DNA from: a virus
Lineage: Duplodnaviria; Heunggongvirae; Uroviricota; Caudoviricetes
Virus record (IMG/VR): IMGVR_UViG_3300031555_002194
Coordinates: 1 to 64,000 of that record
Direction: 5' to 3' (one strand)
Length of the DNA: 64,000 nucleotides
Positions 8,263 through 47,409 of the stretch are shown piece after piece (the first letter of the stretch is position 1; each line of letters starts with the position of its first letter). Below the pieces are notes generated by a model that worked only from the letters and a program-made list of their open reading frames with translations, had not been told where the DNA came from and did not search any database. The position numbers and the translations under genes were made by a program.

Positions 8263-8263
8263 A

Positions 8264-8443: not shown

Positions 8444-8477
8444 CAAAAGAAGACATATAAGAAAAGAGAGGTAAATA

Positions 8478-17074: not shown

Positions 17075-17219
17075 AACATATCAATAACACATTATATATC
17101 ACATCACAGTGCGTTTCTGACATCGTAAAAAAAATCGGTGTTAGTGACGCACTTTTTGTAGAAGTAATAAGTAAGATAAAAAATTTACTACTTATACAAA
17201 AGACAAAGGTGTGATAATT

Positions 17220-19340: not shown

Positions 19341-19892
19341 TTAAGAGGTTCTTTTCCAAATATAAACTGCTAAATATGGAGGCATGTTATTGTGAGCTAC
19401 ATTGCCACCAATATTATTAATTGTAATATCATGAATATGATTTCCATTTGATGTTGTTGCACCAAGAATATAATCGGCGCCTGTTGTAGCTCTGTGAACA
19501 GAATAGCATCCACCACTAGAATTATATACTGCATCTTTATCTGCGCCAATTTGATGAGTATGTGCGCCATTTTCAGATAATGACGCAGTGTGATTATGAC
19601 TTGGTATTTCATCAACTGTTAATGTATGAATGGCTTCGCCACCAACGCTTCCTGCTTCATAATTATTCCCAGCAGCAAGCAAAAATGTATCTTTAATTTG
19701 TTCCCATGTTCCAAATCCAAATAATACAGATGGGTTTGCATTAATAACAGACATGTAAATAGATCCTATCGGCTATACTTGCTCTAAAACAACAGTATCT
19801 CTGTTAATCATTATCCTATTTTCATTACCAGAAGTAGAATCTAAAAAATCTGAATATAACATTCCATCATCAGTTAAATATATATCCATCAT
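19341..19892 (-). CDS. phage tail-collar-domain fibre protein (with in-frame TAG at 19773-19775)
   Basis: HTLTVDEIPSHNHTASL...HNNMPPYLAVYIWKRT is the tail-collar signature. The conserved N-terminal PIGSI motif lies upstream of the ORF-track ATG and across an in-frame TAG. Frame is open back to ATGATG at 19887-19892. Confidence 0.55.
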
Positions 19893-26133: not shown

Positions 26134-29100
26134 TTACACGCCAAAGGAGAACATTAATAGAACACCATATTTATTAGTGTTTGGTGATTTGATATTGTAA
26201 GTAGTACCATCTGCTTGAACCAGCCACCAATAAGATGTAGAAGCCACATTAGGAGAGCGAGTCCAATATTCTTCATAAACATCTGGCGTATCTACTTTCG
26301 CTCTTTTTCTCATTGTAGGATTTGTTATATAAGAAACACATCCGTTGGTTTCGTATGAATATGGTTCTGTATTTTTTGAATTATCCAAATCATACACAGC
26401 TGGAATGTAGAAGTAACAATTAGAGTTAGACACTTCGGACGATTTATCACCAACTGAAGAACTAACGACAACTGGTTTGATTAGCGCTTTCCATAGAGGG
26501 GAAATTGCCTTAACCAATCTTGTATTCAGCTTTCTATTCAATACTGAATCTGCCCAACCACCAGAGTTACTACTTGTTTCATAGATGATAGAGTTCATGC
26601 TCATCAGATTTGTTGCCAAGAATGTCATTTTTGACATTTTTGTATGTTCGTTTGCTAAATAGTGTGCTCTAAATTTAGCCAATTCCATAGGGATAACTTC
26701 GTGAGTCCATTGAGCAATGTCAGAACATACTTTGTCGCCAAGATCAGCTTTCCACAGTTTGCACCAATAAATAGTACCTTTACAGTGTTTTTCAATAAAA
26801 CCGTCATCGGCTTTTGCTGCGCCAAGAATTAAAGAATAATTATGTTCTGGAACTCTCGGTGCTACTAATGTCTCAATTGAAATATCTTCTTGGCTAATAT
26901 TACTCATGTAAACATGAACAGTATTGCTGCCTGCCTCATGTCTCAGCACAAGCATTTCTCTATTTGTTCCATTTGCAGGAATAGCGGTTTTGTTGTTCCA
27001 AGCCAATTTTACACCAGTGTAAGAATTGTATAGTTTAAAACCATTCATGCCATTATTTTGCATACACTGCATCAAAGTAGCACCATCTGCATTTCCTTCT
27101 GCAAATGAGAAATCACATGCTAATGTCCAAGAACAATCAGTTTCCATTAATACAATACCAGTGTCAATAAAGTTCGAGCCATCAAAATCAGTTTTTTCGT
27201 TGATAATAACAGTTTCTTCGATATCATCTGCGTGGAAATCATGACCAATTTCAAAATTGATACTATCTTTGATTGTTAGCACATCTTGTTCTAGGCCAAG
27301 TTTCATCATTGCATAAATTTCAACTTTGCTCATTTCAGAAAGTTCTTTGTTGTCAAAGCATCCTTCTGAGTATTCAAACGAATCAAATACCGCATTAATA
27401 TTTTTGTTGCCATCAACTAGTCCACTATTGTCCCAGTGGCTGAACAGATAATATTTATATGCAGATTCTTCTGCTGTATACAGTGGCAGATCTTCATCGT
27501 AAGGTACTATAGACCCGTAAGGGGCTGTTGTTGTTTGTAGAACTGTGCCTTTAGATGAATATGTCACAACATAATTTCTGACACTTTCAGAATAAGTTGC
27601 TTTAACAACTTTATCGCTAAATACCTGTCCTGTTAATGGAGTATCCCATTCTTTAAATGTAAAGTTTGTGCTTACTGTACTTTCTAAAGTAGGGGTAGGA
27701 ATAGGGTTGTCAGTTCTAGTCAGAGGATCTACTGCGTATCCACCTTTATCTACATATTGTACATCCAGTATAGTTTCATTATCGTCTGCGTTCACAAAAG
27801 TAACTGTAAACTGATTTACTAATGTATTGTAAGTAATATTTAAATCACTCCACGCATCTTTATAAATTTGTAGACTCTTTTCTTTTGCAACTGTTGTATG
27901 TACAGTACCAGTTAAGATGGACTGATCAACTGTGTAACCAGAAGAGTCAACACCTCTGAATGTTAACATTCTATCTAAGATAGATGTGTTTTCCAGATTA
28001 TAACTTGCATCCCAGTTCATATTGATTAAACGCAATGTGTTTAACATAGGTGCGTTATTGATGATATTGTATGTGTTCACTGCTGGTGTATTTTCCACAA
28101 TTAAGAACTGAAGATTGTTATATCCAGACATCTCAAATGTTTCCAGATAATTCAGATTCTTCATTGTTAGAGAGATTACTGCAGGAATGTATGCAGACAC
28201 AAGTTTTCCACCATTAGCAAAAATGATACCTGTTGCACCGGAGTTTTCAGCTCTAAGCTCAACCAGATTGTTACATTGAGATAGGTCAACAACAGAGTTG
28301 ATTCCAGTTGTATTTCTGATATCCAGATATTCAAGCAATTTGTTATTGCCAAGTGTCAGCTGTGTTAGATATGTGTTAGCATATCCATTTGCATCACTAC
28401 CAATTACAAGGCTCTGCAGTCTGGATGCTTTAGAGAAGTCATTATCACCAATATAACATTTAGATAGATCGCCAATTGCCTGAATGAAGCTTGCACCATA
28501 AATCAGTGTAATATCTGCTGTGTCGCCATCATAAGGAATTGTGTATTCTACACCAGCTTTTGCTCTAAAGTTTGTAGGTGTTGTGTTGCCACGCTTAACA
28601 CCAAGGTACATGTCAGAATATGGTGTAATATACAGTGTGAAATCCTGTTTAATTGCGGCACCAACGGGGTTGTTGAAACGCATCATAATTTGGTCTGCAG
28701 TTGCTGTCGTACCAAAGTATTTTGTTGCAAAATACAACTCCTGATTGCGTTCAAACATTCTACGCTGATATTTTTTACGGCCATTCAGCATTTCTTCTAA
28801 GAAACGAGGTGTTTGTGCGCCTTCGATAGAGTTATCAATAGAAATACCAAGGTAAGTTCTCAGATATTTTCTTTGAATATCAAGTCTCCAAATTTCTTCG
28901 GGGAATTCACTTTGTGCTTTATCAAATTGTTCAATCAAACTTGTAGCACTCCACGCATTAGCACTTTCTCTGTTAACAAACATTGCTTGCAGCTCATCTT
29001 TAAACAGGTCACGGATTCTACAGAAGAATGTACTTTCTGCCGCGCGATAGATATAAGAAGAAGTAGGATCGCCATCTACATAATAGTCTGTATCTTCTTT

Positions 29101-32100
29101 ACCATATGTCAGAACCAGTTTGCCTACATTGTCAATACCTAAAGATGTGTCCATGTCATAGCCAAAACATAAGTCCCAGCGATATACACCATCATCACAT
29201 TTGCCATAATGCCAGAAAGAGTTTTTAGCTCTGTTATCTACCATTGTATATCTTTCTGTGAACAGGTAATAATATAGGGCGGAGTCAACGATAAAATATT
29301 CATGCAGACGATCATGAAATTCTTGGTCAGAAGATGTTACTACAAATTTGTAGAACTCTCTCCACGCATCAATATTTGCTTGACGCTGTTCGTCAGTAAT
29401 ACCTTTCTTTTCGTATCTAAATTCATAAGATTTAGAACCAAAAGATTTGAAAGAGTAAGTTGTTGTACCATCATCTTCAACTTCTGCTTCGTATTCATAT
29501 TCAGCATACAGTTTGTCGTATGCGTCATTTCCAGCTTTCCATTCACTCTCAGGACAAATTCCATCTTTACCAGTAGGGAATTCTGCCAAAACAACATCGT
29601 AGTCAGTAATTTCTACAATGCATTCTTTGGGGTCAGAATCATCATTCATTCTGGTTTTATCTGTCTTTTTGTCATCACCGATGTTACCAAGAGCGTAGTA
29701 ATGGTATGTGTCAGAGTCTTTAAATTCTCTGTGATTACTAATATTTGGATCATACTCACGAACAAAGATTACACAGTTGTAGAATTCCATTGTATCCTTA
29801 ACTTTAGGATCGTTGGCTTTAGCAGGGCGTACAACTGGGTTGAACTCATTATATCTACGAGCTAACTGTGCATTATTCTGGTTTTCAGAAGATGCAATGT
29901 TTACTTTAACATTATAGAACGCAGCGGGAACTGAGTTTCTAGTTAAAGTTACTTTATCTGTTTTTGTTTTACCATCACCCAGCGTAAACTCAGATTCATC
30001 ATTGTTCATAATCAGTCTCAGGTTTCTGCCAGCGTAACCGTATTCATTAGAGGATGTGCCCTGACCAGAGTGTGAAGCACCAGTACATACCCAGTTATCC
30101 AGTACGGGGTCGCCACCTTTATAAATCATCTGGATAGTTGTGTTGGGAACTTTGTCGTCTTTGTCATTTGTAAACCAAGGACAATCAATCAGAATGATTC
30201 TCAAGTCTGGACATTTTTCAGCCAGAACTTCAGGTTTCAGAACGCCATCTTCATAGATATCATTACGATTATAACGAGCAATCATTTCATCAGCATTTCG
30301 TGCGTCAGCAATAAAGTTAGACAAAATATCTCTGTCACTCAAACTTGCTGTGTAAGCCTTCATGCGATAGATATGAACATCACAGTCTGCGCTACCAATA
30401 GTGATAGGTTTTGCATTTAACTGCATGAAAGATGTATCTGCAGAATAAATCATTGGTCTATTGCCAACGCCATCTTCATATGTCAGCACCATAGGGATGT
30501 CTGTATCTTTATTGATATTAAATTCGAATTCGATAATATCTTCTTCACAATAAGGAGAGTACAGGCTCTTATTGCTAGAATAGATTGTTGCTCCTTCGAC
30601 TTTCATATCCAGACCAACGCCACTTTCCATGCATGATACGAATGATGTATCTCTGTTTCTTACATTGGTAGTTTTAAATACCAGTTTAAATTCTTTACCA
30701 TTTCTCTTAGGGTCATCGGAAAACAAATTGTAATTGATAATAGCATTTGTACCAGATTTTACACAGAAATACTGATCACCATTTTCATCAATCTGATATC
30801 CGCCATTTACCCAGTCGAAGTTGTCAGAAACAGTCATTGTAACATCACCATCAGACCACAATCTGTCAGCACCGTTATTAGTTCTGCCAATAGGGTTGAA
30901 GTCAAATGCAAGATTACCAAGAACAGGGGAAATAGTGATATCCAGTTCTTCAACTGTTACATTGATTGTTTTAACTGTGTCTCCGCATGTGATTGTTAAC
31001 ACATGATCGCCAACATCAGCTGTTTTATACTGCCATGTATTTACATTCTGTGTTAATGTTAGGTTAGATACAACATTGCCATCAACTGCTAGAGTTACTT
31101 TAGGTGTTTCCGTAGAAGGATCGTAAACTACATATTCAATATTTGTAGAGTCATACTGTTTTACAGTAATTTCAGGAGTTCTGCAACCAATTACAGGAAT
31201 ATCACTTTCTGAATCAAACCAGATAATATCTTTATAAATATGGTCTGGTTCAACATGTACATTATTCACTGTTGCTGTGATATATGCTTCTAAGAAATGT
31301 GCGCCATGTTCCTGTGCTGGCAGAGTGTAAGACATAGGAATGCCAGAAGCGGATGTTGTTACACTGGGTAGCTCTTCTCCATCTAAGATAAAATGAATCT
31401 CTTTAGAAATAGCACCGTAAGGTGTATATGCAAACGAAACATCTCCCATAGATTGAGGGAATGTATCATTAAAGTTTGATTCTAATTTAATATCGATTTT
31501 CTGAACAGTCCATGTTTTAGTAACAAGGCTTCCTGCACTATCAGTAATGCTTAATGTTAATTTCTGAGAACCTAAAGAAATAAATTCTGTTGCATCAAAT
31601 GTGTTTTCACCATCTGTTGCAATACCAGTAGCAATAACTCTATTTCCGATTCTCCATGTGTAATCGCCCTCAGATACAATATCGCCTGAAGAGTCTGTGC
31701 CAGAAAATCTATAAGTAATTTCCACCTTATCATCAACAGTAACGATAACAGGAGATGTAGTTACATATTCAATTTTCAGAACACTGCTTGTAGAAGATCC
31801 GCCGCCTCCAGCAATTTTGAAACTGCTTTTTGCAGTACGCACTTCATTGTCACCTTCGCCTTGAATTTCCCACAGAGTGTAAAGATATTCTTCATCATAT
31901 GTAGCTTCATATGTTGTCTTAGGAGAGTTATCAAAACTATTCATTGTTTCTTCTAACTCAACAACTTTTTCAGTGAGTGCTGTAATATTATCCTCATTAT
32001 TATCAACATCAGACTCAATAGCGCCTAACTTTGTATTGATAGAAGATTCTAATGCTGACACTTTTGTGTCAACAGAAGAACTGATAGACGCTAACTGAGA

Positions 32101-33402
32101 GTTAACAGAAGATTCTAGGCCTGTAACTTTATTAGAAACTTCCGATACGCTTTCTACAGAAGCCTTTTCGTCTAACAGATTATCTGTATCTTCTTTTGTG
32201 TAATAATTACTTTTTAATGTTTCAGGTAATCCATCAATAGCACCATGGATTTCTTCTAATTCTTTATCAACTTCTGTTTTATTATCATTGATTTTAGAAT
32301 TTAATGTTGACTCTAATGTTGATACAGCAGATGTAATATCTTTGTTGATTTCCTGTTGGAATGCCAATGTCCAATCTGCAGAAGGGTTGATGTCGCCAAT
32401 TTCTGTTGAAGTAATTTCCGTTTCATTGTTCATGAAACTCAATGTTCCTTTGCCATCAACAACTTCATATTTTACTTTTAAATTCGCAAGGCTATCGATA
32501 ATAACCTCACTAAGAATTGTCTGTTCCTCTTCAGACTCAACATCTGTAAATGTTAATTTGCCAGTAATATTGTCATAATCAACTTTTAGCTGTTGTAAAC
32601 TATCTATATCTTCACAGAATGCACGGAGTGATGATAGTTGTGCATCAGATTCTTCTTTTGTATAATGGTTGTTTTTGACATTTTCATAAATGTTAGGCTC
32701 AACCGCTGACTGAACATCTTTTGTCAGATTTTCTAAATCTGCTCTCATATTTTCATAAGTTGTCTCTGCGTTTTCTTCACTAGCCTTTGCGGAATCTGCA
32801 TACCATTTTGCATTTGTCATATAAGAAACCATCAAGTTTTCAAATGTAACATACCAGTCATTTGATGGCTGCACAATACCGCCATATGTTAACGCTTCTA
32901 AAACAGTAAGTCTACCATCTGGTTTTGTACGGAACTTATAGTTTTCATTTTTCTCATTTACACCAAAAGCGGTGATTTCAAATTGAACTTCACCAGCAAT
33001 GGATGTAACGCTTTCATTCACAAGCCAGCCAAATGTGATATGGCTATCACTGTATCTAACATTGACAACTTCGCTGACATCGCCACGACCATTTTTATTA
33101 TTCCAATGGACTTGGATAAACATGTCCATTAAGTCAATACCATCCCAATATCTGGGCATTTTAAATGGAATATATTGGCTGTTTGTTTCTTGTGTAATGT
33201 TAATTTGTGATGCATTTACACTGATACTCTTTAAAGGGTCAATTGTAGAAAATTCTTCGTCATAATACTTTTCATAGAATTTATATCTACCATCATCACA
33301 AATAACAAAATTTTCTGTAACAACATCGTCTTCAACAGATCTTTTCATAGAAAAAGTAGAAGCGTTTAAAAGGTTTCGTTTAGCTTCATTTAAGGATGCC
33401 AT
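26134..33402 (-). CDS. giant (2422 aa) tail fibre / host-adhesion protein
   Basis: A single uninterrupted ORF. β-rich, Thr/Asn/Asp-rich repetitive modules, no TM segment. It lies between a 235-aa gene (34129-33422) and further fibre genes. Confidence 0.6.
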   Translation of the reverse strand: MASLNEAKRNLLNASTFSMKRSVEDDVVTENFVICDDGRYKFYEKYYDEEFSTIDPLKSISVNASQINITQETNSQYIPFKMPRYWDGIDLMDMFIQVHWNNKNGRGDVSEVVNVRYSDSHITFGWLVNESVTSIAGEVQFEITAFGVNEKNENYKFRTKPDGRLTVLEALTYGGIVQPSNDWYVTFENLMVSYMTNAKWYADSAKASEENAETTYENMRADLENLTKDVQSAVEPNIYENVKNNHYTKEESDAQLSSLRAFCEDIDSLQQLKVDYDNITGKLTFTDVESEEEQTILSEVIIDSLANLKVKYEVVDGKGTLSFMNNETEITSTEIGDINPSADWTLAFQQEINKDITSAVSTLESTLNSKINDNKTEVDKELEEIHGAIDGLPETLKSNYYTKEDTDNLLDEKASVESVSEVSNKVTGLESSVNSQLASISSSVDTKVSALESSINTKLGAIESDVDNNEDNITALTEKVVELEETMNSFDNSPKTTYEATYDEEYLYTLWEIQGEGDNEVRTAKSSFKIAGGGGSSTSSVLKIEYVTTSPVIVTVDDKVEITYRFSGTDSSGDIVSEGDYTWRIGNRVIATGIATDGENTFDATEFISLGSQKLTLSITDSAGSLVTKTWTVQKIDIKLESNFNDTFPQSMGDVSFAYTPYGAISKEIHFILDGEELPSVTTSASGIPMSYTLPAQEHGAHFLEAYITATVNNVHVEPDHIYKDIIWFDSESDIPVIGCRTPEITVKQYDSTNIEYVVYDPSTETPKVTLAVDGNVVSNLTLTQNVNTWQYKTADVGDHVLTITCGDTVKTINVTVEELDITISPVLGNLAFDFNPIGRTNNGADRLWSDGDVTMTVSDNFDWVNGGYQIDENGDQYFCVKSGTNAIINYNLFSDDPKRNGKEFKLVFKTTNVRNRDTSFVSCMESGVGLDMKVEGATIYSSNKSLYSPYCEEDIIEFEFNINKDTDIPMVLTYEDGVGNRPMIYSADTSFMQLNAKPITIGSADCDVHIYRMKAYTASLSDRDILSNFIADARNADEMIARYNRNDIYEDGVLKPEVLAEKCPDLRIILIDCPWFTNDKDDKVPNTTIQMIYKGGDPVLDNWVCTGASHSGQGTSSNEYGYAGRNLRLIMNNDESEFTLGDGKTKTDKVTLTRNSVPAAFYNVKVNIASSENQNNAQLARRYNEFNPVVRPAKANDPKVKDTMEFYNCVIFVREYDPNISNHREFKDSDTYHYYALGNIGDDKKTDKTRMNDDSDPKECIVEITDYDVVLAEFPTGKDGICPESEWKAGNDAYDKLYAEYEYEAEVEDDGTTTYSFKSFGSKSYEFRYEKKGITDEQRQANIDAWREFYKFVVTSSDQEFHDRLHEYFIVDSALYYYLFTERYTMVDNRAKNSFWHYGKCDDGVYRWDLCFGYDMDTSLGIDNVGKLVLTYGKEDTDYYVDGDPTSSYIYRAAESTFFCRIRDLFKDELQAMFVNRESANAWSATSLIEQFDKAQSEFPEEIWRLDIQRKYLRTYLGISIDNSIEGAQTPRFLEEMLNGRKKYQRRMFERNQELYFATKYFGTTATADQIMMRFNNPVGAAIKQDFTLYITPYSDMYLGVKRGNTTPTNFRAKAGVEYTIPYDGDTADITLIYGASFIQAIGDLSKCYIGDNDFSKASRLQSLVIGSDANGYANTYLTQLTLGNNKLLEYLDIRNTTGINSVVDLSQCNNLVELRAENSGATGIIFANGGKLVSAYIPAVISLTMKNLNYLETFEMSGYNNLQFLIVENTPAVNTYNIINNAPMLNTLRLINMNWDASYNLENTSILDRMLTFRGVDSSGYTVDQSILTGTVHTTVAKEKSLQIYKDAWSDLNITYNTLVNQFTVTFVNADDNETILDVQYVDKGGYAVDPLTRTDNPIPTPTLESTVSTNFTFKEWDTPLTGQVFSDKVVKATYSESVRNYVVTYSSKGTVLQTTTAPYGSIVPYDEDLPLYTAEESAYKYYLFSHWDNSGLVDGNKNINAVFDSFEYSEGCFDNKELSEMSKVEIYAMMKLGLEQDVLTIKDSINFEIGHDFHADDIEETVIINEKTDFDGSNFIDTGIVLMETDCSWTLACDFSFAEGNADGATLMQCMQNNGMNGFKLYNSYTGVKLAWNNKTAIPANGTNREMLVLRHEAGSNTVHVYMSNISQEDISIETLVAPRVPEHNYSLILGAAKADDGFIEKHCKGTIYWCKLWKADLGDKVCSDIAQWTHEVIPMELAKFRAHYLANEHTKMSKMTFLATNLMSMNSIIYETSSNSGGWADSVLNRKLNTRLVKAISPLWKALIKPVVVSSSVGDKSSEVSNSNCYFYIPAVYDLDNSKNTEPYSYETNGCVSYITNPTMRKRAKVDTPDVYEEYWTRSPNVASTSYWWLVQADGTTYNIKSPNTNKYGVLLMFSFGV

Positions 33403-36452: not shown

Positions 36453-37106
36453 TTAAAAATCCTCTTTAATCCTTACAATATCGTCCAGTTCTGTGGTTGA
36501 ACTTTCGATAATAACCAAATCTGTAATAGCTCTGACTTGATGAATAGTGCCAGCAGGAATTCTCACAGTATCTCCAGTATGAACATTAAATTCTTTACCA
36601 TCAATTCTAGCAACGCCAGAACCGTTGACAATATGCCATGTTTCATTTTTCTTCACATGATACTGTAAAGAAATATTTTTACCAGCATCGATATGAAGTT
36701 TTTTCATAGCATACTGTTTCGTAATATCAATTAGGTATTCTTTACCCCAATGTTTATCAACAACAGTTAGACTATCTGTATGACCAGAAGAGATAAAGTC
36801 ATTTGCATTACAGCCTCTATCGTCAACATATATGTCTGCAGCCATCTTACCAGTTTGCATCTTATGGTACTTAACTCCCCAACGATGAAGCTGATCACAT
36901 GTAATGTCACTCCAATCAATTCCAGTTTCAGTGCCACGGGCTGTATAAAAAATAATTTCATGTCCAGCATCATACAGTTGATTTATTTTAGCAATCATAT
37001 CTTTATATGGTTTTGCGTCGAAATAATCTTTCTCCTGAGAGCAAATGGTACCATCGATATCAAAAATATACTTCAGAGGTTTCGTATTTGAATTTTGCAT
37101 ACTCAT
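36453..37106 (-). CDS. HAD-superfamily phosphatase fused to a cupin domain
   Basis: FDIDGTI is HAD motif I (KdsC/NANP-like). The C-terminal half (LHIDAGKNISLQYHVKKNETWHIVNGSG...) is a cupin β-barrel. Start is the ATG after AAAGGAGG. Confidence 0.6.
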   Translation of the reverse strand: MSMQNSNTKPLKYIFDIDGTICSQEKDYFDAKPYKDMIAKINQLYDAGHEIIFYTARGTETGIDWSDITCDQLHRWGVKYHKMQTGKMAADIYVDDRGCNANDFISSGHTDSLTVVDKHWGKEYLIDITKQYAMKKLHIDAGKNISLQYHVKKNETWHIVNGSGVARIDGKEFNVHTGDTVRIPAGTIHQVRAITDLVIIESSTTELDDIVRIKEDF

Positions 37107-37728
37107 ATTCCTCCTTTGTATCAATGTCAATAGTTTGTTCTTCAGGAATTTCAAGAAGAATTAAATCGTCTTTCAACATATATCCGTCTTCTTTAAATTT
37201 CTTTCTGTTGAAGATATGGAAGCAGTGGGCGCATTGAAGCCAAGGTTCAATTTCTTTTGTGGTTAGACGCTTGTAGTCAACATCTGTTACAGCATCCATG
37301 TTGTCGTTCCACAACCAATTTTGAAATTTCTTTGCGCTAGTACCATAATCTTTACCACTGTTTAAGAACTTACTGATTGCAGTAATAATAGTTTGTGGAG
37401 ATAGAAAGATAAGGCATGGATTGAGAAACATCAGATATTTTTCTGCCACATCAAGAACGTCTTTGAAGATGAACTGCAGTGGTCCTTCTGCTTCGGCAGT
37501 AGCGGGATCTCTGATAATAATTTGAACATTTGAATATTTCTCAGCAATATCAATTAGTTCTTTATCACAAATTAGCACATAAGTATTAATACCATAATAT
37601 TTTTTAATATAGTCCAGCTTCTTACAACAAATTTCAAACATACAAGTATCACCAATTGGTAAAATCTGTTTGTTTGGTAATCTATGACTGCTTAGTCTTG
37701 CTGGCACAAAAATTCCTACATGTCTCAA
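37060..37728 (-). CDS. CMP-sugar (acylneuraminate/Kdo-type) cytidylyltransferase
   Basis: N-terminus GIFVPARLSSHRLPNKQIL matches the NeuA/KdsB/PseF P-loop-like motif (PAR.GS.R.P.KN). Confidence 0.65.
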   Translation of the reverse strand: MRHVGIFVPARLSSHRLPNKQILPIGDTCMFEICCKKLDYIKKYYGINTYVLICDKELIDIAEKYSNVQIIIRDPATAEAEGPLQFIFKDVLDVAEKYLMFLNPCLIFLSPQTIITAISKFLNSGKDYGTSAKKFQNWLWNDNMDAVTDVDYKRLTTKEIEPWLQCAHCFHIFNRKKFKEDGYMLKDDLILLEIPEEQTIDIDTKEEYEYAKFKYETSEVYF

Positions 37729-38543
37729 TATAGAATGCCTCCTTTTTCTCGTGTATATCTACCACCGCCATTATTACAATAATAACAGGGCATATCAGGC
37801 GTATATTTTGCCTGAATTACATTTTTTAAAAATGTCAAATATTTTTCTGAATACAACATATCAGTTAAAGATTGTTGTTTTAAATTTCCTAAAATATAAT
37901 CCTTTTGATTTTTACAATCGCTTCTAACGTTGCAACAAGGGCTTACTGTTCCATCATAATTTACGCCAATAAAAAAAAGAGGCTCGTAACACGGAGCTTC
38001 TCTCTTATTTAATGAATATTGAACTAGATTGCCGCCACGATCAGATATTTTAGCAACTTCAGTCCAAGAATAATAGTATAAAATTTTCTTGTTGTAGTAC
38101 GTTCCAACAAAGTAATGGTCATATTCCTGAATATCTGACACATGCCATTCTTGCAGTTTGTTAAATACATATTCTTTCCCTTTGCGATCGTAGTCCATAA
38201 TCGTTAGTTCATCAATAAACATTGTTTTCAAGACTTCTTCTGTGATATAATCACCATTCGTATTAGACACTGTAATTGCTTCCGGAAAAATTTTTTTGAT
38301 ATATCCGATTGCCCAATTCAGTAAATTAACATCGGAAAATGGTTCATTATAACGTGAGAATGAAAATTTTCCGGTATAGCCATTTTGTTTTAATTCACAA
38401 AGAAGAGAGTGGAATACACTACTATCTAAGTATTTGATATCGTTCTGTCTATCAATATAACTGTTTGGACACCAAGTGCATTTTCTATTACAGTAGGAAA
38501 ATAGTTCAATTTCAACCAGTCTAAGATTTTGAATTAACTCCAT
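37725..38543 (-). CDS. radical SAM enzyme with C-terminal SPASM/twitch-like Cys cluster (paralog 2)
   Basis: Radical SAM CxxxCxxC motif is CNRKCTWC. C-terminal Cys cluster PCYEP...SPCCNV...PCYYC. Start ATG at 38543 follows AGGAGGG. Paralogous to the upstream gene. Confidence 0.65.
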   Translation of the reverse strand: MELIQNLRLVEIELFSYCNRKCTWCPNSYIDRQNDIKYLDSSVFHSLLCELKQNGYTGKFSFSRYNEPFSDVNLLNWAIGYIKKIFPEAITVSNTNGDYITEEVLKTMFIDELTIMDYDRKGKEYVFNKLQEWHVSDIQEYDHYFVGTYYNKKILYYYSWTEVAKISDRGGNLVQYSLNKREAPCYEPLFFIGVNYDGTVSPCCNVRSDCKNQKDYILGNLKQQSLTDMLYSEKYLTFLKNVIQAKYTPDMPCYYCNNGGGRYTREKGGILY

Positions 38544-38544
38544 T

Positions 38545-39525
38545 TTATCCCTCCTGTATTTCTGATGCTGCATCTTTTTGTTCAAATTCTTCGTAAATAT
38601 AATTCCAACCAGAAGGTGACCCATAACAATTAATATATCTCTTTTTCTGACAATATTTACAGGGCTATGGATAATCACCATAACGAACTCTGAGTTTTTC
38701 TCTAATCTTTTCTGCTTTTTCAGAATAGTAGATATCAACCAACGGAGTGTCTTTGATATTTCCAAGAATATATTCTTTGTGATCAGGGTTGTCTGGGCGC
38801 ATATGGCAACATGGCATCACAGACCCGTCATATGCAATAGTAATGAAATATTCTGGTTCCGGACATTCTCTGGTTCGTTTATTCATATTTTCAGACCATT
38901 CGTACTGTGGCAAGTCTCCTTGTTTAAAAAATCCGCCACGATTTTCTAGTTTAATATTTTTAGACCAGTTCAATTGAACAGTCACAGATTCCATATAACG
39001 ATGTATGCCATGCAGTAAATCTAGATTTTTATCATAGCCAATTACTAGCACGCCCAACTCTTTTAATTTTTGCTTCCAATATTCCAACCCTTTGTTGTCA
39101 TAATCTTGAATTGAAACATTGGTTAACATCATGTGTTCCAAATTTTCTTTTGTAAGATAGTCACCATTTGTGTTTGTAATATAACATATTCTGTCATCTA
39201 ACACGGAACGAGCTTCATCTATGCGTCTTCGTAATAATTCAGGATCGCTAAAACTTTCTTGATAACCAAGAAACGACATAATGGCAGATGTTCCAACAGG
39301 CTCTTTACCATCTTCTCTATCCGGGAAAAATAAAGTATTATCTTTACCAAAATCTGCTTCTTTTAATTGTCTAATAAGACTTGTAAAAACATCATCAGGC
39401 ATAATTTCTTTAAAACTTCTATCAAAAACTTTGTTTGGACACCAGTCGCATTTTCTATTGCAAAAAGATTGTAATTCGAGGTCTATTCTACGAATGTGAT
39501 GCAAGTTTCTTACTCTTTCACCCAT
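38545..39525 (-). CDS. radical SAM/SPASM-like enzyme (paralog 1) containing an in-frame TAG at 38665-38667
   Basis: Radical SAM motif CNRKCDWC. After the TAG the frame continues 40 codons (PCKYCQKK...) to TAA at 38545. This restores the PCxYC motif conserved in paralog 2. Confidence 0.6.
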
Positions 39526-40571
39526 TTTAAGAACACCTCCTCGTTGTTAATAATAGGACTTGGTTTTACCTTACTATCGTGCAAATAAATCAAATCACGT
39601 AAGAAAATAGGGTACGCATGTACAACTCCAAGAATATCATTCATCATTGTGGTTTCTGCTTCTACTGTATATTCGTTTATTAACGTTTCGCCATTGTTTT
39701 TTATTGTTTCTAATGCTTTCTGAAGCAGATCGTTATCATATAAAATATCACATCCATACATATCTTCAATGATATATCTATATTTTACAGAGCTAGGAAG
39801 ATGGATATATTTACAAACCTTTTTATATGTTTTAAAATCAAAAGGAAGAATTAAGCAAAATACCTTAAAGTCTTCGCTGATTTCTCCTTCCATCGCAAGA
39901 AGCTTTAAAGATACAATTCTATGATTGCCTTCAAATACATATAAATCATCACTCTCATCATCCATCGGAGCAACAACAAAAGGCCACCATGTTCCATTTT
40001 CTATAATAGATTTTGCAAGGCTCAGTTTGTCAGAATGCGCATCTCGAAGAAATGGGTCGTTTACAAAATGTCGCCATGTCTTCTGTGTGATAGTTGGACG
40101 AATATTCAACTCACTAATTGGAATAAATTTTGCCTGAATAACACCTGTTTTTAATAGATTTTTCAAATTTACATTTAAATAATCTTCTTCATACATACGT
40201 CGAACTTCTTCCAAAGAATATTCACGGCGATATTGACAATCTGAGTAAGATCTATTTCTATTTGGGACAGATTCTCTTTTTTGAATATCAAAAACAAATT
40301 CGTTTGTATTCATGTCAATATGGCTACTGATAATAGAATTTTCATATGACATAGATTTGTCATAATCTGTTTTGCTAATAATATCATGTCCAACATCTTC
40401 TCTTTTAATATATTGAAAATTCTCATCACACTCAAATCTTGAATCTAAAAAAGATTCAATATCAAACTGTGTATCATTTGGAGTTACAATTGTCAGAATT
40501 TCTTTATCTCTATTATCAAAGAAAACTATTATTTTATCATTGAAACTATCATTGAACAAGGTTGTCACCAA
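39510..40571 (-). CDS. hypothetical protein with weak ParB/Srx-like motif
   Basis: 353 aa. FEGNHRIVSLKLL resembles a ParB/sulfiredoxin-fold motif (GxHR). Confidence 0.35.
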   Translation of the reverse strand: MVTTLFNDSFNDKIIVFFDNRDKEILTIVTPNDTQFDIESFLDSRFECDENFQYIKREDVGHDIISKTDYDKSMSYENSIISSHIDMNTNEFVFDIQKRESVPNRNRSYSDCQYRREYSLEEVRRMYEEDYLNVNLKNLLKTGVIQAKFIPISELNIRPTITQKTWRHFVNDPFLRDAHSDKLSLAKSIIENGTWWPFVVAPMDDESDDLYVFEGNHRIVSLKLLAMEGEISEDFKVFCLILPFDFKTYKKVCKYIHLPSSVKYRYIIEDMYGCDILYDNDLLQKALETIKNNGETLINEYTVEAETTMMNDILGVVHAYPIFLRDLIYLHDSKVKPSPIINNEEVFLKWVKE

Positions 40572-41468: not shown

Positions 41469-43250
41469 TTATGTTAAATCAGGGTAAATGTAAATATTAT
41501 ATGCTGTGTTGTAATAGTATGTGCCATCGTTTGTCCAAGTGATTGCAGCGCCTACAATAGATTTTACATTATTAATTAACAAAGTGTTGAATGTAGTAGA
41601 GTTTGCATAGCAATGAATATTGTATATACGAGAATTGTTTTTTCCATAAAAACAATTTACTGCATTAGACACTTTGTTTGATAATATATATATGTCACCA
41701 TCAAGATTAACACACCCATAATATGTATTACACATATTAATTACATTGTTACCACATACCGGAGAACCTGTTAAATTTGTACAACCACTATACGCTCCAG
41801 CAATATTAGTTACATTTTGTCCAAAAACAGGTGTCCCAGTGATATTTGTGCATGCACTATATGCGAATGCCATATTTGTGACTTTTTCGCCACAAACAGG
41901 AGAGCCTGTTAAATTGCGGCAATTAAAATATACACCACGCATATTTTTAACATTATCACCACAAACAGGGGAACCTGTTAATTTAACACAGTTATAATAT
42001 GTTTGAAACATTGTAACGACCTTATTGCCACAAATAGGAGACCCTGTTAGGTTTGTGCATCCTAAATATGTTTGATACATATTTGTCACATTACTTCCAC
42101 AAACAGGATAGCCTGTCAGGTTTGTGCAACTAGAATATGTATTACACATATTAATTACATTGTTTCCGCAAACAGGAGAGCCTGTCAGGTTGTGACACTG
42201 CCGATATGTATTTAACATGTTAGTTACTTTATCACCACATACAGGCGAACCTGTAAGATTTCCGCAGTTGTAGTATGCATGTGTCATATATATAGTATTT
42301 GTACCACACGCTGGAGATCCATTTAAATTAAAACAATTAGCATATGAATTTATCAAATGCACAACGTTATCTCCACACGCAGCATCTCCAACAATATTTT
42401 TACAAGCCTGATACGTGTTAGTCATATCAATAACATTATTACCGCACACAGGATATCCTGTTAAGCTATAACAATTGTTATACGTCTAATACATATTAAC
42501 AACTTTATCTCCGCATACAGGAGAGCCTGTGAGGTTGTGACAATAATCATATGTACCAGACATATTAACAACTTTATCTCCGCATACAGGAGAGCCTGTT
42601 AAATTAGAACAAGACACATATGTCTGGTACATATTAACAACGTTTTCGCCACAAATAGGAGACCCAGTTAAATTTTTACAACCGCGATATGTGCCACGAA
42701 GATTTGTTACATTATTTCCACATACAGGGGAACCTGTAATATTGTTACAAAAATAATATGTAAAAGACATGTCTGTCACATTCTCGCCGCAAATTGGAGA
42801 GCCAGTAAGATTATAACAATTGTAGTATGTATGATACATATTTTGTACATAACTATCACAAACAGGAGAACCTGTGAGATTTATGCATCCGTTAAAAAAA
42901 AATGATTTGTTTTGAATTTTAATATTCTCATCATATAACTCTGATGTGATATCATGTCTATGGTTTGCCAACCATTTAACCGAAGCTGCTGACGTATATA
43001 ATTTTCTTACATTGTAAACATTATCCGGTTGTTCATTTATGTTATTTGGATCATTACAAAAAAGCAAACTACCATTATTCTAATATAAAGCGTAACCAAT
43101 CTAATCATTGTAAATTAATTTTGCAACATTATTTTTATCGCCGTACTATGCCATAGTAATACCTGTGGCTAAGTCATAGTTGTTTCCATAATAAATTTCT
43201 GTAATATTTTTTATAGTACCATTTGGAGTTATATAAATATTTTCAACCAT
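41469..43250 (-). CDS. Cys-rich BspA-like leucine-rich-repeat protein B (about 595 aa, with in-frame TAGs at 42486, 43080, 43101 and 43146)
   Basis: Tandem ~19-aa repeats Y.NC.NLTGSPVCG.NVTNM. ORF-track pieces 42486-43067 and 41469-42449 share one frame. The TAG replaces Gln in the recurring NMYQTY motif. An N-terminal extension back to the ATG at 43248-43250 (RBS GAGGAGTG) is inferred. Confidence 0.55.
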
Positions 43251-43255
43251 ATTCA

Positions 43256-43960
43256 TCACTCCTCATATACAAAATATAATGTACCTGCTTTTAAATAGTT
43301 ACCTTCTAGGATCTGTTCGGTGGAAACCACGATAGGAAGGTCTGATATTAGATGTTCATGTGTTGGGATACATTCTTGATATAGCTGACCTCTTTTTTCT
43401 TGTAGTTTATACAATCTCACAATATGAATCTCTTGTGTGCAAATAGTTCCACTTTCACAACACATAATGTTCCCATTCATTACATCTTCTTTTGTCGTAG
43501 GGGTGGAACAGTTCCAGCACATTATTCCGCTAGTATTAACAATATCAGGTGAGAGACTAATAGAGTTGCTGACTTCAGAGCCATATTCTTCATTGTATAT
43601 TGATTGCGTAAAAACGAATGATTGAGAATCGTCACTACTAATACGGACTACAGATGAATAATATTCTTGTTCCTCTTCTGTTAATTCACTTTGTATTGCG
43701 ATTGCAGAATATTGATTACCATTATATTCAAGAATATATTGACCTCCAACAACAAGCGTTTCACATTCTAACCCAAACCATAAATTGGACTACCATTCTT
43801 CTTGTGTTTCTGAGTCAATATTATATTGTAAATTATCATTATATTCACAAATACAGATTGGTTCAATTTTATCTTCTCCAAACGGCTTTCCTTCTATCTT
43901 ATCCCATTCTGCTTTTCCAGACCCGCCACCTACAGGCAGATCACCATAATAAATACCCAT
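43256..43960 (-). CDS. Cys-rich hypothetical protein (in-frame TAG at 43790-43792)
   Basis: ATG at 43958-43960 follows AAGGAGTG. The frame is continuous to the TGA at 43256 apart from one TAG. The ORF track shows only the last 88 aa. Confidence 0.5.
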
Positions 43961-44030: not shown

Positions 44031-44270
44031 TTATTCGCTAATCTGACTTTGCAGTTTAGCAATTTCAGCTTTTTTCTTTCTAACTTCTTTTTCCAGATGA
44101 GACTTTAGGAATGTTCTACCTTCAACATCATCGCCCTCAGCAATCAGTCTGATGTTTTCATCGATCATCCACTTCATCTGATTTACTTCAGCCTCGATAC
44201 CCATAATTTTATCTTCAACGGATTCTTCTTCCATTTCAAATTCCAGTTCCATGTTTTCGTTCATTTCCAT
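44031..44270 (-). CDS. small acidic coiled-coil protein
   Basis: 79 aa. Its start overlaps the GT2 stop (TAATG). Confidence 0.4.
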   Translation of the reverse strand: MEMNENMELEFEMEEESVEDKIMGIEAEVNQMKWMIDENIRLIAEGDDVEGRTFLKSHLEKEVRKKKAEIAKLQSQISE

Positions 44271-45490
44271 TATTGTTCCTCCTCGTTATCTGTAAAAATA
44301 TAACCTTCTTCTCCCAGAACACCAGACTTCATATCAAGTTCGTGTACCCAAGCGGGTAATTCTTTTCTAATAGAATCAAACTCAGTTCTACCACCGTACT
44401 CGTCAGTTCTAATTTTGTCCATAAATTCAAAGAATGTCATTTCAGGAATAATTCCGATCATCTCCTGACCACGGGCAGCACTCTGAGATGTGTACATCAT
44501 TTTCAGAATATCATTATCAATATTCTTTTCAAAATCCTTATAGCAAGAATGATAAAATCTTTTTGCATTAAAGAAATTCTGTTTTGCAAACATAGGCTTT
44601 CTTTCTAAACACTGAATGTATGTAAAATACTGACCAATCATCTGTTCTACAGCAAATCTCATTACGTTGCCATTAAAAGGATTCTTTCTCTGACAGAATT
44701 TAACAGCATTGATTGCAGCAGCAGTTGCACCAACCTGACACAGATCCCAGTTGTACAGAGGTTCACCACCATTTTCTTCAATGCCAATTCTAGTAATAGA
44801 ATGATCACTACCTGTTTTCCATAGATAGATAGGGGAGTCAATCAGATTAATCTGAAGAGGCGTACCTTCGATTGTCATTCTAATCATCCAGTTTAATTCT
44901 CCATCTTCCATTGCTCTGAGTTTGCTAAATCTAATACCTTGTTGTCTTAGGAATGGAACATTATATAGTCTGCCAAATACCCAAGGATGACCAATGTCGT
45001 TTCTAGGCATTGTTCTAGGTGGAATCTGCTGACCACTTTGCATTAACTGCATTTTTGTCGCAGAGTTCAGATTACCTTCTGCAACTTCCTGCAGGAATGC
45101 ACCCTGAACTTCGATACAATTAGGTGTGATATTGTTGTACAGTTCTTCTAAAGCAAATGGTGTCATTAAGACATCGTCTGCGTCCATAAATGTGATCCAG
45201 TCTGTTTTACATGCTTCTAGTGCTCTTTGACGAGCCAGACCGGGGCCAGTATTTTTCTCGCAATCTAGAATTGTAATGTCTAGAGTAGGGTAGAGTTTTT
45301 TAAGGTAAGAGTATGTACCATTGTCCGAAGGATAATCATTCGCTAGGATGATAGTTGTGTCTGCTGAAATTGACTGCATCAGCACAGAAGCGAGTAGGGT
45401 AGGTAATGTCTCTTTTGCTTTATAAACTGGCACACCGATTGTTAGTTTTTTGATGTTTGAAGTGTTTTGATTATTTGTGAAGTTATTCAT
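44270..45490 (-). CDS. family-2 glycosyltransferase (GT-A fold)
   Basis: IGVPVYKAKE...ILANDYPSDNG...FMDADDVL carries the DxD motif. The internal ATG at 45490 follows AAAGGAGA. Confidence 0.75.
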   Translation of the reverse strand: MNNFTNNQNTSNIKKLTIGVPVYKAKETLPTLLASVLMQSISADTTIILANDYPSDNGTYSYLKKLYPTLDITILDCEKNTGPGLARQRALEACKTDWITFMDADDVLMTPFALEELYNNITPNCIEVQGAFLQEVAEGNLNSATKMQLMQSGQQIPPRTMPRNDIGHPWVFGRLYNVPFLRQQGIRFSKLRAMEDGELNWMIRMTIEGTPLQINLIDSPIYLWKTGSDHSITRIGIEENGGEPLYNWDLCQVGATAAAINAVKFCQRKNPFNGNVMRFAVEQMIGQYFTYIQCLERKPMFAKQNFFNAKRFYHSCYKDFEKNIDNDILKMMYTSQSAARGQEMIGIIPEMTFFEFMDKIRTDEYGGRTEFDSIRKELPAWVHELDMKSGVLGEEGYIFTDNEEEQ

Positions 45491-45596: not shown

Positions 45597-47390
45597 TTAT
45601 GTTAGGTCAGGATAAATGTAAATGTTATATGTTGTGTTGTAATAGTATGTGCCTGCATTTGTCCATGTGATGTTTGCACCAACTAAAGATTGCGTGTTGT
45701 TGATTAGTAATGTATTAAATGTTGTAGAATTTGCGTAACAATGAATGTTGTATTGACGAGAGTTATTTTTGTTGTAGAAACAATTAAGAACATTAAGTAC
45801 GCTTTTAGAATACCAATATTGATTGCCAGCGGATAAATTTATGCAATTAGCATACGCATTACCCATAGTAGTAACTTTATTCCCACACACAGGGATCCCT
45901 GTTAAATTTGTACAATTATAGTATGCTGCCAACATATTTGTAACATTATTGCCACATACTGGTGAGCCATTTATATTGATACAATGCCAATATGCAGCAT
46001 GCATACTTGTAACATTATCGCCACACACTGGTGATCCACTAAGTTTTCTGCAATTAATATATGTTCCAATCATACAAGTGACATTATTACCACACACAGG
46101 ACTACCATTAAGATTTCTACAATTAATATATGCATAATACATATTTGTGACATTATTGCCACATATAGGAGAGCCTGTTAAATTTTGGCAATTTTCATAC
46201 ACATTAGACATGCTTACAATCTTATCACCACAAACAGGCGACCCAGTGATTTTGTTACAGTATTGATACGCTCTAATCATATTAATCACATTATTGCCAC
46301 ACACGGGGCTACCATTAAGATTGAAGCAATTAACATATGTTGTGTACATATTTGTAACATTATTGCCACACACAGGAGATCCTGTAAGGTTACGGCAATT
46401 AAACTATGCCCAACTCATATCAGTAACATTATCACCACACACTGGTGCACCTGTAAGGTTGTAACAATGCTAATATGTGTGATCCATATTTGTAACATTA
46501 TCACCACACACTGGTGCACCTGTAAGGTTACGGCAGTTATGATATGCACAAGACATATTTGTAACATTATCACCACACACTGGAGAACCTGTTAGGTTGA
46601 AACAATTATAATATGTATTAAACATATTTGTAACATTTTGCCCACATGCAGGAGATCCTGTAAGGTTACGGCAGTTATGATATGCACAAGACATATCTGT
46701 AACATTATTCCCACACACTGGTGCACCTGTAAGGTTGTAACAATGCTGATATGTGTGATCCATATTTGTAACATTATTACTACATACTGGTGCACCTGTA
46801 AGGTTACGGCAGTTATAATATGCGTTTTTCATATTTATAACATTGTTTCCGCACATAGGAGCACCTGTAATATTTCTGCAGTTTTCATAAGCATAAGACA
46901 TATTTGTAACATTATCACCACACACTGGTGCACCTGTAAGGTTGTAACAATGCTGATATGTGTGATCCATATTTGTAACATTATCACCACACACTGGTGC
47001 ACCTGTAAGGTTACGGCAGTTATGATATGCACAAGACATATTTGTAACATTATCACCACACACTGGAGAACCTGTTAGGTTGAAACAATTATAATATGCG
47101 TTTTTCATATTTATAACATTGTTTCCGCACATAGGAGCACCTGTAATATTTCTGCAGTTTTCATAAGCATAAGACATATCAGTAACATTATTACTACATA
47201 CTGGTGCACCTGTTAGGTTATAACAATTACAATGCATACTTGCCATATTAACTATATTTGAATAATTTAATTGAATATTTGACAATTTGTTCATATTGTA
47301 GAACGCATTTGACATATTAGTTGTCTAGATCTTCACATTATTAGGTACAACTATTTTAGTCACATTGTTCCATTGTTGAAAATTAATCAA
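45597..47390 (-). CDS. Cys-rich BspA-like leucine-rich-repeat protein A (about 598 aa, with in-frame TAGs at 46404, 46470 and 47325)
   Basis: ORF-track pieces 46470-47315 and 45597-46373 are in one frame. The TAG at 46470 aligns with Gln in the repeated HTYQHCYNLTG motif. A TTG start at 47388-47390 after GGGGGTGA is inferred. The C-terminal ~60 aa is near-identical to protein B. Confidence 0.5.
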
Positions 47391-47409
47391 ATTCTATCAC
47401 CCCCGATAA

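Follow-up and report, generated by a model that had tools for sequence, protein, structure and literature searches.

This study deals with a gene cluster at positions 36453-40571 of a 64-kb stretch of DNA (hereafter the window) from the Caudoviricetes record IMGVR_UViG_3300031555_002194. The original prediction for this locus comprised five open reading frames (ORFs), namely a HAD-cupin fusion, a cytidylyltransferase for a CMP-activated sugar, two radical-SAM paralogs and a protein with a ParB motif. All five are located on the minus strand at 36453-40571, and the motifs quoted for them (FDIDGTI, PARLSSHRLPNK and CNRKC[DT]WC) can be read directly from the sequence. The genes and sites that are relevant for the following analysis are:

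41208-40549, minus strand: Ser/Thr-rich protein of 219 amino acids (aa), which opens the unit as its first long gene
40571-39510, minus strand: protein X (the 'ParB-motif' protein), 353 aa, with a predicted ParB/sulfiredoxin-fold core
39525-38545, minus strand: rSAM-1 (radical-SAM paralog 1, type 1), 326 codons including one in-frame TAG, BtrN-like twitch enzyme by sequence
38543-37725, minus strand: rSAM-2 (radical-SAM paralog 2, type 2), 272 aa, BtrN-like twitch enzyme by sequence
37728-37060, minus strand: cytidylyltransferase (CT) of the CMP-sugar synthetase type, 222 aa, TTG start
37100-36453, minus strand: HAD-cupin fusion, 215 aa, HAD part at about 36786-37079 and cupin part at about 36462-36767
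19978-20796, minus strand: NeuB-family nonulosonate synthase condensing phosphoenolpyruvate (PEP), 272 aa, without the C-terminal SAF domain
44270-45490, minus strand: GT2 glycosyltransferase (Pfam Glycos_transf_2, 2.7e-18), outside the conserved module
41463-41441, minus strand: terminator-like hairpin just upstream of the unit, with a 9-bp stem (six GC pairs) and a subsequent T-run
38555-38541, minus strand: junction of rSAM-1 and rSAM-2, with AGGAGG at 38555-38550, the stop codon TAA at 38547-38545, one spacer base and the start codon ATG at 38543-38541

The order of transcription runs from the 219-aa protein via X, rSAM-1, rSAM-2 and CT to the HAD-cupin fusion. Neighboring genes overlap by 23 nt (219-aa protein and X), 16 nt (X and rSAM-1), 4 nt (rSAM-2 and CT) and 41 nt (CT and HAD-cupin). 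The exception is the pair of radical-SAM genes, which abut without overlap; the layout of ribosome-binding site, stop and start codon had been described correctly, but the two paralogs do not overlap as originally stated. The arrangement of this junction suggests translational coupling. Terminator-like sites are more frequent in the window than expected (16 observed versus 4.0 +/- 2.0), each of them being a consensus match only, and the hairpin at 41463-41441 suggests that the operon represents a separate transcription unit. Its first gene product, the 219-aa protein, has a homologue with 83% identity at the same position of the related locus L001, and segments of it match a 939-aa protein that lies upstream of X in the more distant locus L003. 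Searches of Pfam, NCBIfam and phrog returned no family match for it. It is probably a structural, fibre-related protein and a possible acceptor of the sugar whose synthesis is discussed below.

Profile searches in the same three databases recovered the NeuB, CTP_transf_3, cupin and HAD families that had been proposed for the locus. The synthase matches the NCBIfam model NeuB_NnaB with 1.2e-65 (positions 3-276 of 329, 221.8 bits) and PseI with 6.7e-49, and it is related to sialic acid and pseudaminic acid synthases of the PDB (5e-33 to 1.7e-29). The best structural match is 6NCS, a sialic acid synthetase of 290 aa that likewise lacks the C-terminal SAF domain. CT is recognized by Pfam CTP_transf_3 (5.3e-9; 36.6 bits versus a gathering score of 22.6). 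The fusion protein with its FDIDGTI motif, which is represented by an identical 215-aa entry in the database that is encoded on contigs of up to 78,439 bp, matches MannoseP_isomer (1.5e-13) and Cupin_2 (1.1e-9) in Pfam; the top structural match of the cupin is phosphomannose isomerase (PMI). Its HAD half matches phrog_1238 (5.5e-30) with intact DxDGT, T and K...DD motifs. Members of this HAD family are elsewhere fused to NeuB, CTP_transf_3, SIS sugar-phosphate isomerases and PF01467 nucleotidyltransferases, which fits a predicted phospho-sugar route leading from the synthase via the HAD phosphatase to CMP activation and speaks for the originally proposed succession of dephosphorylation and activation. 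The nearest solved relative of the HAD is AfhF, the D-arabinose-1,5-bisphosphate 5-phosphatase of phage HY126 (PDB 9IQW; PMC13326640), which strips the terminal phosphate of its substrate ahead of nucleotide activation (PMC13326640). AfhF operates in the synthesis of UDP-arabinose for DNA modification, whereas the HAD investigated here is fused to a cupin and linked with NeuB and a CMP-type transferase.

The Kdn- or eukaryote-type sialic acid route starts from a sugar 6-phosphate and PEP, which are condensed to a 9-phosphate that is dephosphorylated by a HAD phosphatase and finally converted into the CMP-sugar; one example is Bacteroides thetaiotaomicron with its Kdn-9-phosphate synthase and phosphatase. 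The module of the phage exhibits the same logic of four activities, and fusions of NeuB with HAD and of CT with HAD occur in the wider HAD family. It differs from this route in its HAD, which is of the AfhF/EcbF-BcbF type rather than KdsC, in the missing SAF domain of NeuB, and in the additional radical-SAM steps and protein X. Neither NeuC nor PseB/C/H/G nor genes of the legionaminic acid (Leg) type are present among the window ORFs scanned. The PMI-type cupin and the phosphatase would favor a Kdn-type sugar, a preference we state only because no precursor genes for hexosamines, pseudaminic acid (Pse) or Leg were found.

The two radical-SAM proteins are about 36% identical and carry the CX3CX2C motif of the radical-SAM 4Fe-4S cluster (CNRKCDWC in rSAM-1, CNRKCTWC in rSAM-2), whose cysteines C22, C26 and C29 do not vary among 23 sequences of the family. 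A profile built from 23 family members (A1) can be aligned almost end to end with BtrN (PDB 4M7S/4M7T), which acts as radical-SAM 2-deoxy-scyllo-inosamine dehydrogenase in butirosin biosynthesis; with 4M7S the E-value is 4.1e-34, and positions 10-291 of the 306 in the profile correspond to residues 7-245 of the 269 in the chain. Single-sequence comparisons with phmmer gave 6.8e-11 for rSAM-1 versus 4M7T (residues 13-293) and 7.2e-21 for rSAM-2 versus 4M7S (residues 8-260). Residues C221, C239/C240, C289 and C292 of rSAM-1, all of them invariant in A1, align with the cysteines of the BtrN segments ...msC..., ...lPC... and ...lCknC..., and the five conserved cysteines in the C-terminal half thus correspond to four BtrN-type ligands and an extra one. 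Pfam reports a weak Radical_SAM match and a SPASM match (1e-10 to 1e-11), the latter reflecting the shared first half-motif. The second auxiliary motif of SPASM proteins (CX2CX5CX3C plus a distal Cys; seven to eight Cys in total) is missing, with a mere CX2C following the first motif, and no peptide-recognition domain of the RRE/PqqD-like type was found in Pfam and NCBIfam searches. Because the BtrN match is nearly complete, the four auxiliary cysteines are aligned and the second SPASM motif is absent, we classify both proteins by sequence as BtrN-type 'twitch' enzymes with one auxiliary cluster and not as SPASM peptide maturases. The Cys clusters of the original SPASM/twitch assignment are hence present, but they constitute one auxiliary motif rather than a full SPASM domain, and of the two functions that had been considered, a BtrN-type reaction with the sugar as substrate is the more convincing one.

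The enzymes share with BtrN the size class, the CX3CX2C motif, the single auxiliary 4Fe-4S twitch domain and the four aligned ligands. They differ in that the similarity is only about 25-30%, in their localization within phage tail modules beside nonulosonate genes instead of an aminoglycoside cluster, and in the possession of a partner with a predicted ParB/sulfiredoxin fold, which BtrN lacks; type 1 additionally contains an insertion of about 20-30 residues and a C-terminal tail. The 68 homologue clusters of rSAM-1 are mostly 300-330 aa in size and unbroken across the position of the in-frame TAG. Types 1 and 2 represent separate orthologous clades that are common to divergent phages, which is indicative of an old duplication and implies different roles of rSAM-1 and rSAM-2; a third type is present in L010.

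Protein X contains a core with the ParB/sulfiredoxin fold (approximately residues 145-240) that is flanked by a β-rich N-terminal and a helical C-terminal domain, for which fold and family searches retrieved no relatives; a helix-turn-helix (HTH) was not recognized. The motif E214-G215-N-H217-R218 corresponds to a GxxR or DGxHR-type box, and a comparison with 39 distant relatives documents that G215 and H217 are invariant and that R218 is at least 90% conserved. The Pfam, NCBIfam and phrog searches returned no family for X, and neither X nor any of the 39 relatives has a Pfam hit with E <= 0.01. The label 'ParB-motif protein' of the original prediction was therefore appropriate with respect to fold and motif, but Pfam ParBc is not matched and the link to the radical-SAM enzymes had been missed. 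A role as partition-type ParB was rejected due to the missing ParBc match and HTH. Weak PADLOC matches of residues 179-227 to PD-Lambda-5_A (best 7.9e-6), which cover the region of the ParB-like motif only, were read as shared fold, and a function of X as defence component was set aside. The superfamily comprises CTP-binding proteins (ParB, PadC and KorB), the ATP-using sulfiredoxin and the serine kinases SerK and SbnI. X has in common with them the core fold and the GxxR-type motif (EGNHR), which binds nucleotide phosphates in those proteins, whereas its terminal domains are unique and it is tied to radical-SAM enzymes instead of partition or DNA binding.

The family of X is small, with 229 representatives among 1.84 billion proteins, and its genes adjoin those of radical-SAM enzymes. 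X is homologous to the proteins encoded upstream of the radical-SAM genes in L010 (8.8e-28) and L012 (4.7e-47), two copies of X are present in L025 (with two radical-SAM genes) and L030 (with three), and the database proteins P0226, P0016, P0181 and P0213 are predicted fusions of both partners in either order. In L018, X and the radical-SAM enzyme would form a single polypeptide if the TAG at codon 195 is a sense codon. X shows no similarity to the proteins at the same position of two bacterial gene islands, i.e. the MptE-like protein of L008 and a 768-aa protein of L007. The gene neighborhoods and predicted fusions identify X as a core, radical-SAM-linked component of the module, and we infer that it may serve the radical-SAM enzymes as nucleotide-binding partner.

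Relatives of the locus were collected by database look-ups and a profile scan of IMG/VR, whereas a single-protein scan of viral contigs gave none. About 25 metagenomic contigs of phages and prophages share the order X – rSAM (one to three copies) – CT – (HAD)cupin – NeuB (L003, L010, L012, L019-L029, L032-L036, L041 and L044), and the module is always located among tail, fibre and lysis genes. CT follows the radical-SAM gene or genes in all relatives. NeuB is situated directly behind the cupin gene in L003, L010, L012, L019, L024-L029, L032-L036, L041 and L044, about 1.3 kb behind CT in L020, L022 and L023, and directly behind CT in L035. In about 20 related phage contigs NeuB thus adjoins the CT or cupin gene, which supports the original proposal that it belongs with the locus, even though it is located about 16 kb downstream of the operon in the phage investigated here. 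Lysis genes and the gene of a 2422-aa protein have been inserted between operon and NeuB, and the same probably holds true for L001. The module was found in TAG-recoded phages and also in the standard-code prophage L010.

A search of the locus DNA against 50,697 GenBank phages and tblastn searches with X and rSAM-2 returned no match, and NeuB matches only three of these phage records. The lack of any counterpart of X and rSAM-2 in 50,697 phage genomes indicates that the module is new among deposited phages. Among species-representative genomes, X is present in one locus only, a metagenome-assembled genome (MAG) of the Peptococcaceae. Bacterial homologues of the radical-SAM enzymes are located in glycan islands that also encode CTP_transf_3 and KdsA-type enzymes, PMI-like and MptE-like (Maf-type) proteins, ribulose-phosphate epimerase and a HAD. 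Two of these islands (L008 8141-16162 and L007 7686-16679) contain BtrN-like radical-SAM enzymes, a full Kdo-type set, methyltransferases and tetratricopeptide repeat (TPR) proteins. This gene content suggests that radical-SAM tailoring of ulosonic acids may exist in bacteria too.

The domain families, the gene order, the predicted fusions, the relationship to BtrN and the reassignment of TAG, which are documented in the sequences, lead us to the interpretation, to which we assign a probability of about 0.6, that the tightly coupled late phage operon and the displaced NeuB encode a complete pathway of their own to a 3-deoxy-non-2-ulosonic acid, most plausibly of the Kdn type, that is activated with CMP and tailored by radical-SAM enzymes. 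For the type of substrate, the sequence of reactions, the position that is oxidized, the function of X and the acceptor, we propose the following. The PMI-type cupin would convert a central ketose phosphate into an aldose 6-phosphate, in the simplest case fructose 6-phosphate into mannose 6-phosphate, which NeuB would condense with PEP to a nonulosonate 9-phosphate (i.e. Kdn-9-phosphate). The AfhF/GmhB-like HAD would then take off the terminal 9-phosphate, and the CTP_transf_3 enzyme CT would form the CMP-sugar. Finally, the two BtrN-type enzymes, each equipped with one auxiliary 4Fe-4S cluster besides its radical-SAM cluster, would abstract hydrogen from secondary carbinol carbons, and the resulting ketones would permit epimerization or further tailoring without O2 or NAD. 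X probably partners the radical-SAM enzymes by holding the nucleotide part of the substrate or a nucleoside triphosphate. rSAM-1 is full-length only if TAG is read as Gln, which would place its synthesis into late lytic expression and thereby points to the virion (tail-fibre region) or a late cell-surface target.

Several observations weigh against this interpretation. The score of NeuB (221.8 bits) is below the equivalog cut-off of NeuB_NnaB (399.65), which is due to the missing SAF domain, and the best NCBIfam matches of CT, i.e. PseF (1.4e-10) and KdsB models, are all under their curated cut-offs; the substrate was accordingly not assigned from these scores. No hit for HAD or cupin at 1e-5 was obtained in L020, L022, L023 and L035, and the 9-phosphate route may hence not be universal. 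Many relatives harbor a single radical-SAM gene, the one of L006 grouping with type 2, and the module can accordingly do without a second copy. A CMP-nonulosonate transferase (sialyltransferase or Maf/MptE-like) is absent among the window ORFs scanned. The GT2 enzyme that had been proposed for the transfer step has a homologue beside the module in only one of about 30 loci, the closest relative L001, and was consequently rejected as a module member. The fusion protein P0016, which is the public translation of the L018 reading frame with TAG as Gln, requires that TAG is read as sense. Finally, no suppressor tRNA was detected in the window, and the contig L014, which covers 10 kb past the window end, contains none either. 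The first 12 related loci also gave none, and an Rfam search of the window returned no RNA.

The nearest functional precedent for the tailoring of nonulosonates by phages is provided by EpaA and EpaB from prophages of Acinetobacter baumannii, which turn pseudaminic acid into 8-epi-pseudaminic acid (PMC12053666). Both systems are phage-borne, and one of the Epa proteins, which contain reductase/dehydrogenase domains, also has a CTP_transf_3 domain (PMC12053666). In contrast, EpaA carries an aldo-keto-reductase domain, the Epa proteins act by their reductase and dehydrogenase domains, and they depend on the Pse pathway of the host (PMC12053666), whereas the module studied here comprises radical-SAM enzymes and its own synthase, phosphatase and cytidylyltransferase.

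The Epa precedent is at the same time an argument for the alternative that survives best, according to which the prophage expresses the operon as a moron whose product remodels a host glycan (capsule, S-layer, flagellin or teichoic acid) via transferases of the host in the course of lysogenic conversion. The phage is temperate, as documented by a tyrosine integrase (17211-18446), terminator-like hairpins bound the unit, and its site between fibre and lysis genes is a classic moron position. Moreover, the module of L010/L011 is located at the end of the prophage adjoining host genes, and no dedicated transferase is conserved with it. We nevertheless consider lysogenic conversion unlikely, because rSAM-1 of the window and both HAD-cupin and X of L003 require TAG suppression, which has been tied to late lytic expression (bioRxiv 10.1101/2021.08.26.457843), and because the operon overlaps with the fibre-like gene upstream. 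A third counterargument is provided by the unrelated phage contig L017, whose genes for CT and a subsequent NeuB-HAD fusion (7369-9122) are separated by three small genes from the portal, protease and major capsid genes upstream of them; a radical-SAM gene is not visible up to the contig end.

The relationship of the HAD with AfhF could also be taken as evidence for DNA hypermodification, in which a modified base would receive a sugar, similar to the arabinosyl-5-hydroxycytosine (Afh) pathway, and X would be a ParB-like DNA-binding component. The ParB-type fold of X and the presence of ThyX, FolD, a dCTP-deaminase/dUTPase-like protein and a nucleotide kinase in this phage are in line with such a function. 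It is improbable given the constant localization of the module in the tail, fibre and lysis region instead of the replication module, the lack of an associated DNA glycosyltransferase or base hydroxylase, and the missing HTH or other recognizable DNA-binding domain in X. Moreover, NeuB and CTP_transf_3 define the activation of an ulosonic acid, and to our knowledge there is no DNA modification that makes use of a CMP-sugar.

The CMP-nonulosonate route with a complete rSAM-1 depends on the reading of its in-frame TAG codon (38667-38665, minus strand), which is located two codons before Cys289 within ...YGDYP-TAG-P-C-K-Y-C.... Under the standard code the protein ends with '...YGDYP*' right before 'PCKYC', and termination at this position would cost two of the four ligands of the auxiliary cluster. 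The original prediction quoted the PCxYC motif of rSAM-1 without noticing the TAG, but this silent read-through is justified by the distribution of TAG codons in the window. The coding strands contain about 60 ORFs with a length of 90 aa or more, not one of which is truly terminated by TAG, and the nine TAG-ended fragments, all of them located at 36.4-57.3 kb, each continue in frame for 39-430 codons. The late genes between 36.4 and 57 kb contain 14 in-frame TAGs on the minus strand:

38667, 42488, 43792, 46406, 46472, 47688, 48249, 48705, 49649, 51127, 53627, 54503, 56163 and others, minus strand: TAG codons read as sense

The coverage of the block from 36.4 to 57.3 kb by long ORFs rises from 0.845 under the standard code to 0.960 with TAG as sense codon, compared with 0.870 for TGA and 0.811 for TAA. 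The sole difference between a 57-nt repeat unit at 46490 and its sister at 46973 is a TAG in place of CAG, and this exchange in otherwise identical units makes Gln the most likely meaning of TAG in this phage. Related loci support the reassignment: L003 has in-frame TAGs in HAD-cupin and X, and L018 (1079-2626) encodes X and rSAM-1 in one reading frame with nine in-frame TAGs, one of which occupies the conserved Gln of a GYQE motif; the other TAG alignment columns are mixed (E, Y, F). Furthermore, the module-bearing viral contig L037 (121 kb) encodes a tRNA with CUA anticodon (498-588; 91 nt according to ARAGORN, confirmed as tRNA by Rfam with 52.5 bits), which belongs to a group of five clustered tRNAs located about 9.4 kb upstream of the module. 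This tRNA is longer than its neighbors in the cluster, and its ends (5' UGGGG, 3' ...CCCCAGCCA) presumably resemble those of bacterial tRNA-Gln.

In the 91%-identical relative L001 and most orthologues, the TAG of rSAM-1 aligns with Glu (GAG), so the change amounts to a replacement of Glu by Gln. The same alignment could be explained by a GAG-to-TAG nonsense mutation in a decaying locus in which rSAM-1 is a pseudogene and only rSAM-2 is functional. The absence of a suppressor tRNA from the window would fit as well. We reject this explanation as very improbable on the TAG evidence described above, i.e. the lack of TAG termination, the freedom of the genes from in-frame TAA and TGA with a coverage of 0.96 only for TAG as sense, the CAG/TAG interchange, and the TAGs and the CUA-anticodon tRNA of the relatives. 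In addition, the 22 codons past the TAG differ from those of L001 by six synonymous and no non-synonymous changes, which argues that the tail of rSAM-1 is under selection.

The use of TAG for Gln is known as 'code 15' from gut phages (bioRxiv 10.1101/2021.08.26.457843; PMC9523058), and suppression in recoded phages is tied to late lytic expression (bioRxiv 10.1101/2021.08.26.457843). Similarities comprise the occurrence of TAGs in late structural genes, their absence as terminators, the interchange with CAG and the relative with a CUA tRNA, whereas the concentration of all TAGs in a single block and the missing suppressor tRNA in the 64-kb window distinguish this phage from them. All sense TAGs are clustered in a single baseplate/fibre block of 20 kb and are absent from the early genes, the tape-measure gene and the block at 19-36 kb. 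This patchy distribution suggests that a phage with more extensive recoding has donated the TAG-bearing block through mosaic exchange. A practical consequence is that annotation with the standard code truncates rSAM-1 and splits most tail genes of this phage.

The least credible alternative is that the radical-SAM pair matures ribosomally synthesized and post-translationally modified peptides (RiPPs) and cross-links the neighboring Cys-rich (BspA-like) repeat proteins at 41469-43262 and 45597-47396, a thioether-forming function that had originally been considered and is compatible with the Pfam SPASM match, but is rejected here since the enzymes are homologous over their full length to the small-molecule dehydrogenase BtrN with one auxiliary motif only, Pfam reveals no RRE/PqqD-type domain and the BtrN alignment already starts at residues 8-13, bacterial homologues reside in glycan islands, and the repeat motif is present in the window, L001 and L002 only among the module-bearing loci tested, in contrast to CT, cupin and NeuB, which accompany nearly all of them. 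The repeat proteins (minus strand, about 600 residues each) are split by TAG under the standard code. They consist of Cys-containing repeats of about 23 residues (...NxxxAYxNCxNLTGxPVCGxNVTNM...) reminiscent of BspA-type leucine-rich repeats, some units being near-identical in DNA, and share a C-terminal domain ending with ...YNIYIYPDLT; they are probably receptor-binding fibres.

Nonulosonic acids such as sialic, pseudaminic and legionaminic acids and Kdn shape immune and phage-host recognition. All enzymes for their tailoring known to us depend on NAD(P), pyridoxal phosphate (PLP) or acyl-CoA. Our literature searches returned no work in which radical SAM is connected to nonulosonic acids or BtrN to cytidylyltransferases, and nothing relevant on radical SAM, NeuB and phage in titles and abstracts. 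The combination of a phage nonulosonate route with radical-SAM enzymes was thus not found in deposited phage genomes or the searchable literature. A CMP-nonulosonate route with BtrN-type enzymes and a ParB/sulfiredoxin-fold partner would bring new chemistry to this class of sugars, and the module would represent a clonable, defined system of five to six genes for finding it. A more far-reaching scenario, which we propose tentatively, is that phages of anaerobic gut bacteria make a novel nonulosonic acid whose CMP form is oxidized or epimerized by the BtrN-like enzymes, with X as cytidine-nucleotide guide or as new CMP-sugar transferase or kinase, and that the sugar is transferred late onto tail-fibre or other virion proteins. 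If true, sialic-acid-type biosynthesis would gain its first radical-SAM step and the ParB/sulfiredoxin fold a new role, and the module would be the first phage-encoded system for virion 'sialylation'. A product that decorates virions would provide gut phages with a new means of masking or targeting, with relevance for mucosal persistence and phage therapy.

The early module of the phage (1789-18446, plus strand) encodes an ATP-dependent DNA ligase, ThyX, a nucleotide kinase, NrdD as anaerobic ribonucleotide reductase together with an NrdG-like activase, an SPFH protein, a metallophosphoesterase, FolD and a dUTPase/dCTP-deaminase-like protein. Its gene content together with the integrase indicates a temperate phage of an anaerobe, because NrdD and the NrdG-like gene are present, and such a host suits oxygen-sensitive enzymes. 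As X occurs in a single Peptococcaceae MAG, the host can be narrowed down no further than to an anaerobe, probably of the Firmicutes. The region from 19 to 33 kb is an unusual second structural-looking block behind the lysis genes. It starts downstream of the holin/lysin region with the 2422-aa protein (26134-33402, minus strand; phrog_14959), followed by proteins without annotated function, a weak α/β-hydrolase (22097-23260), NeuB and a protein with a Gp10_C-like baseplate domain (19341-19754). An exact-match search of IMG/VR with the window end gave no hit. The contig L014, which represents the region beyond the 64-kb end of the window, bears an identical copy of the protein at 62841-63317 and encodes a PemK-family toxin (1802-2221), a second PhageMin_Tail protein (3514-5391) and an Aminotran_5 protein of the cysteine-desulfurase type (9766-10890), which might supply sulfur for Fe-S clusters.

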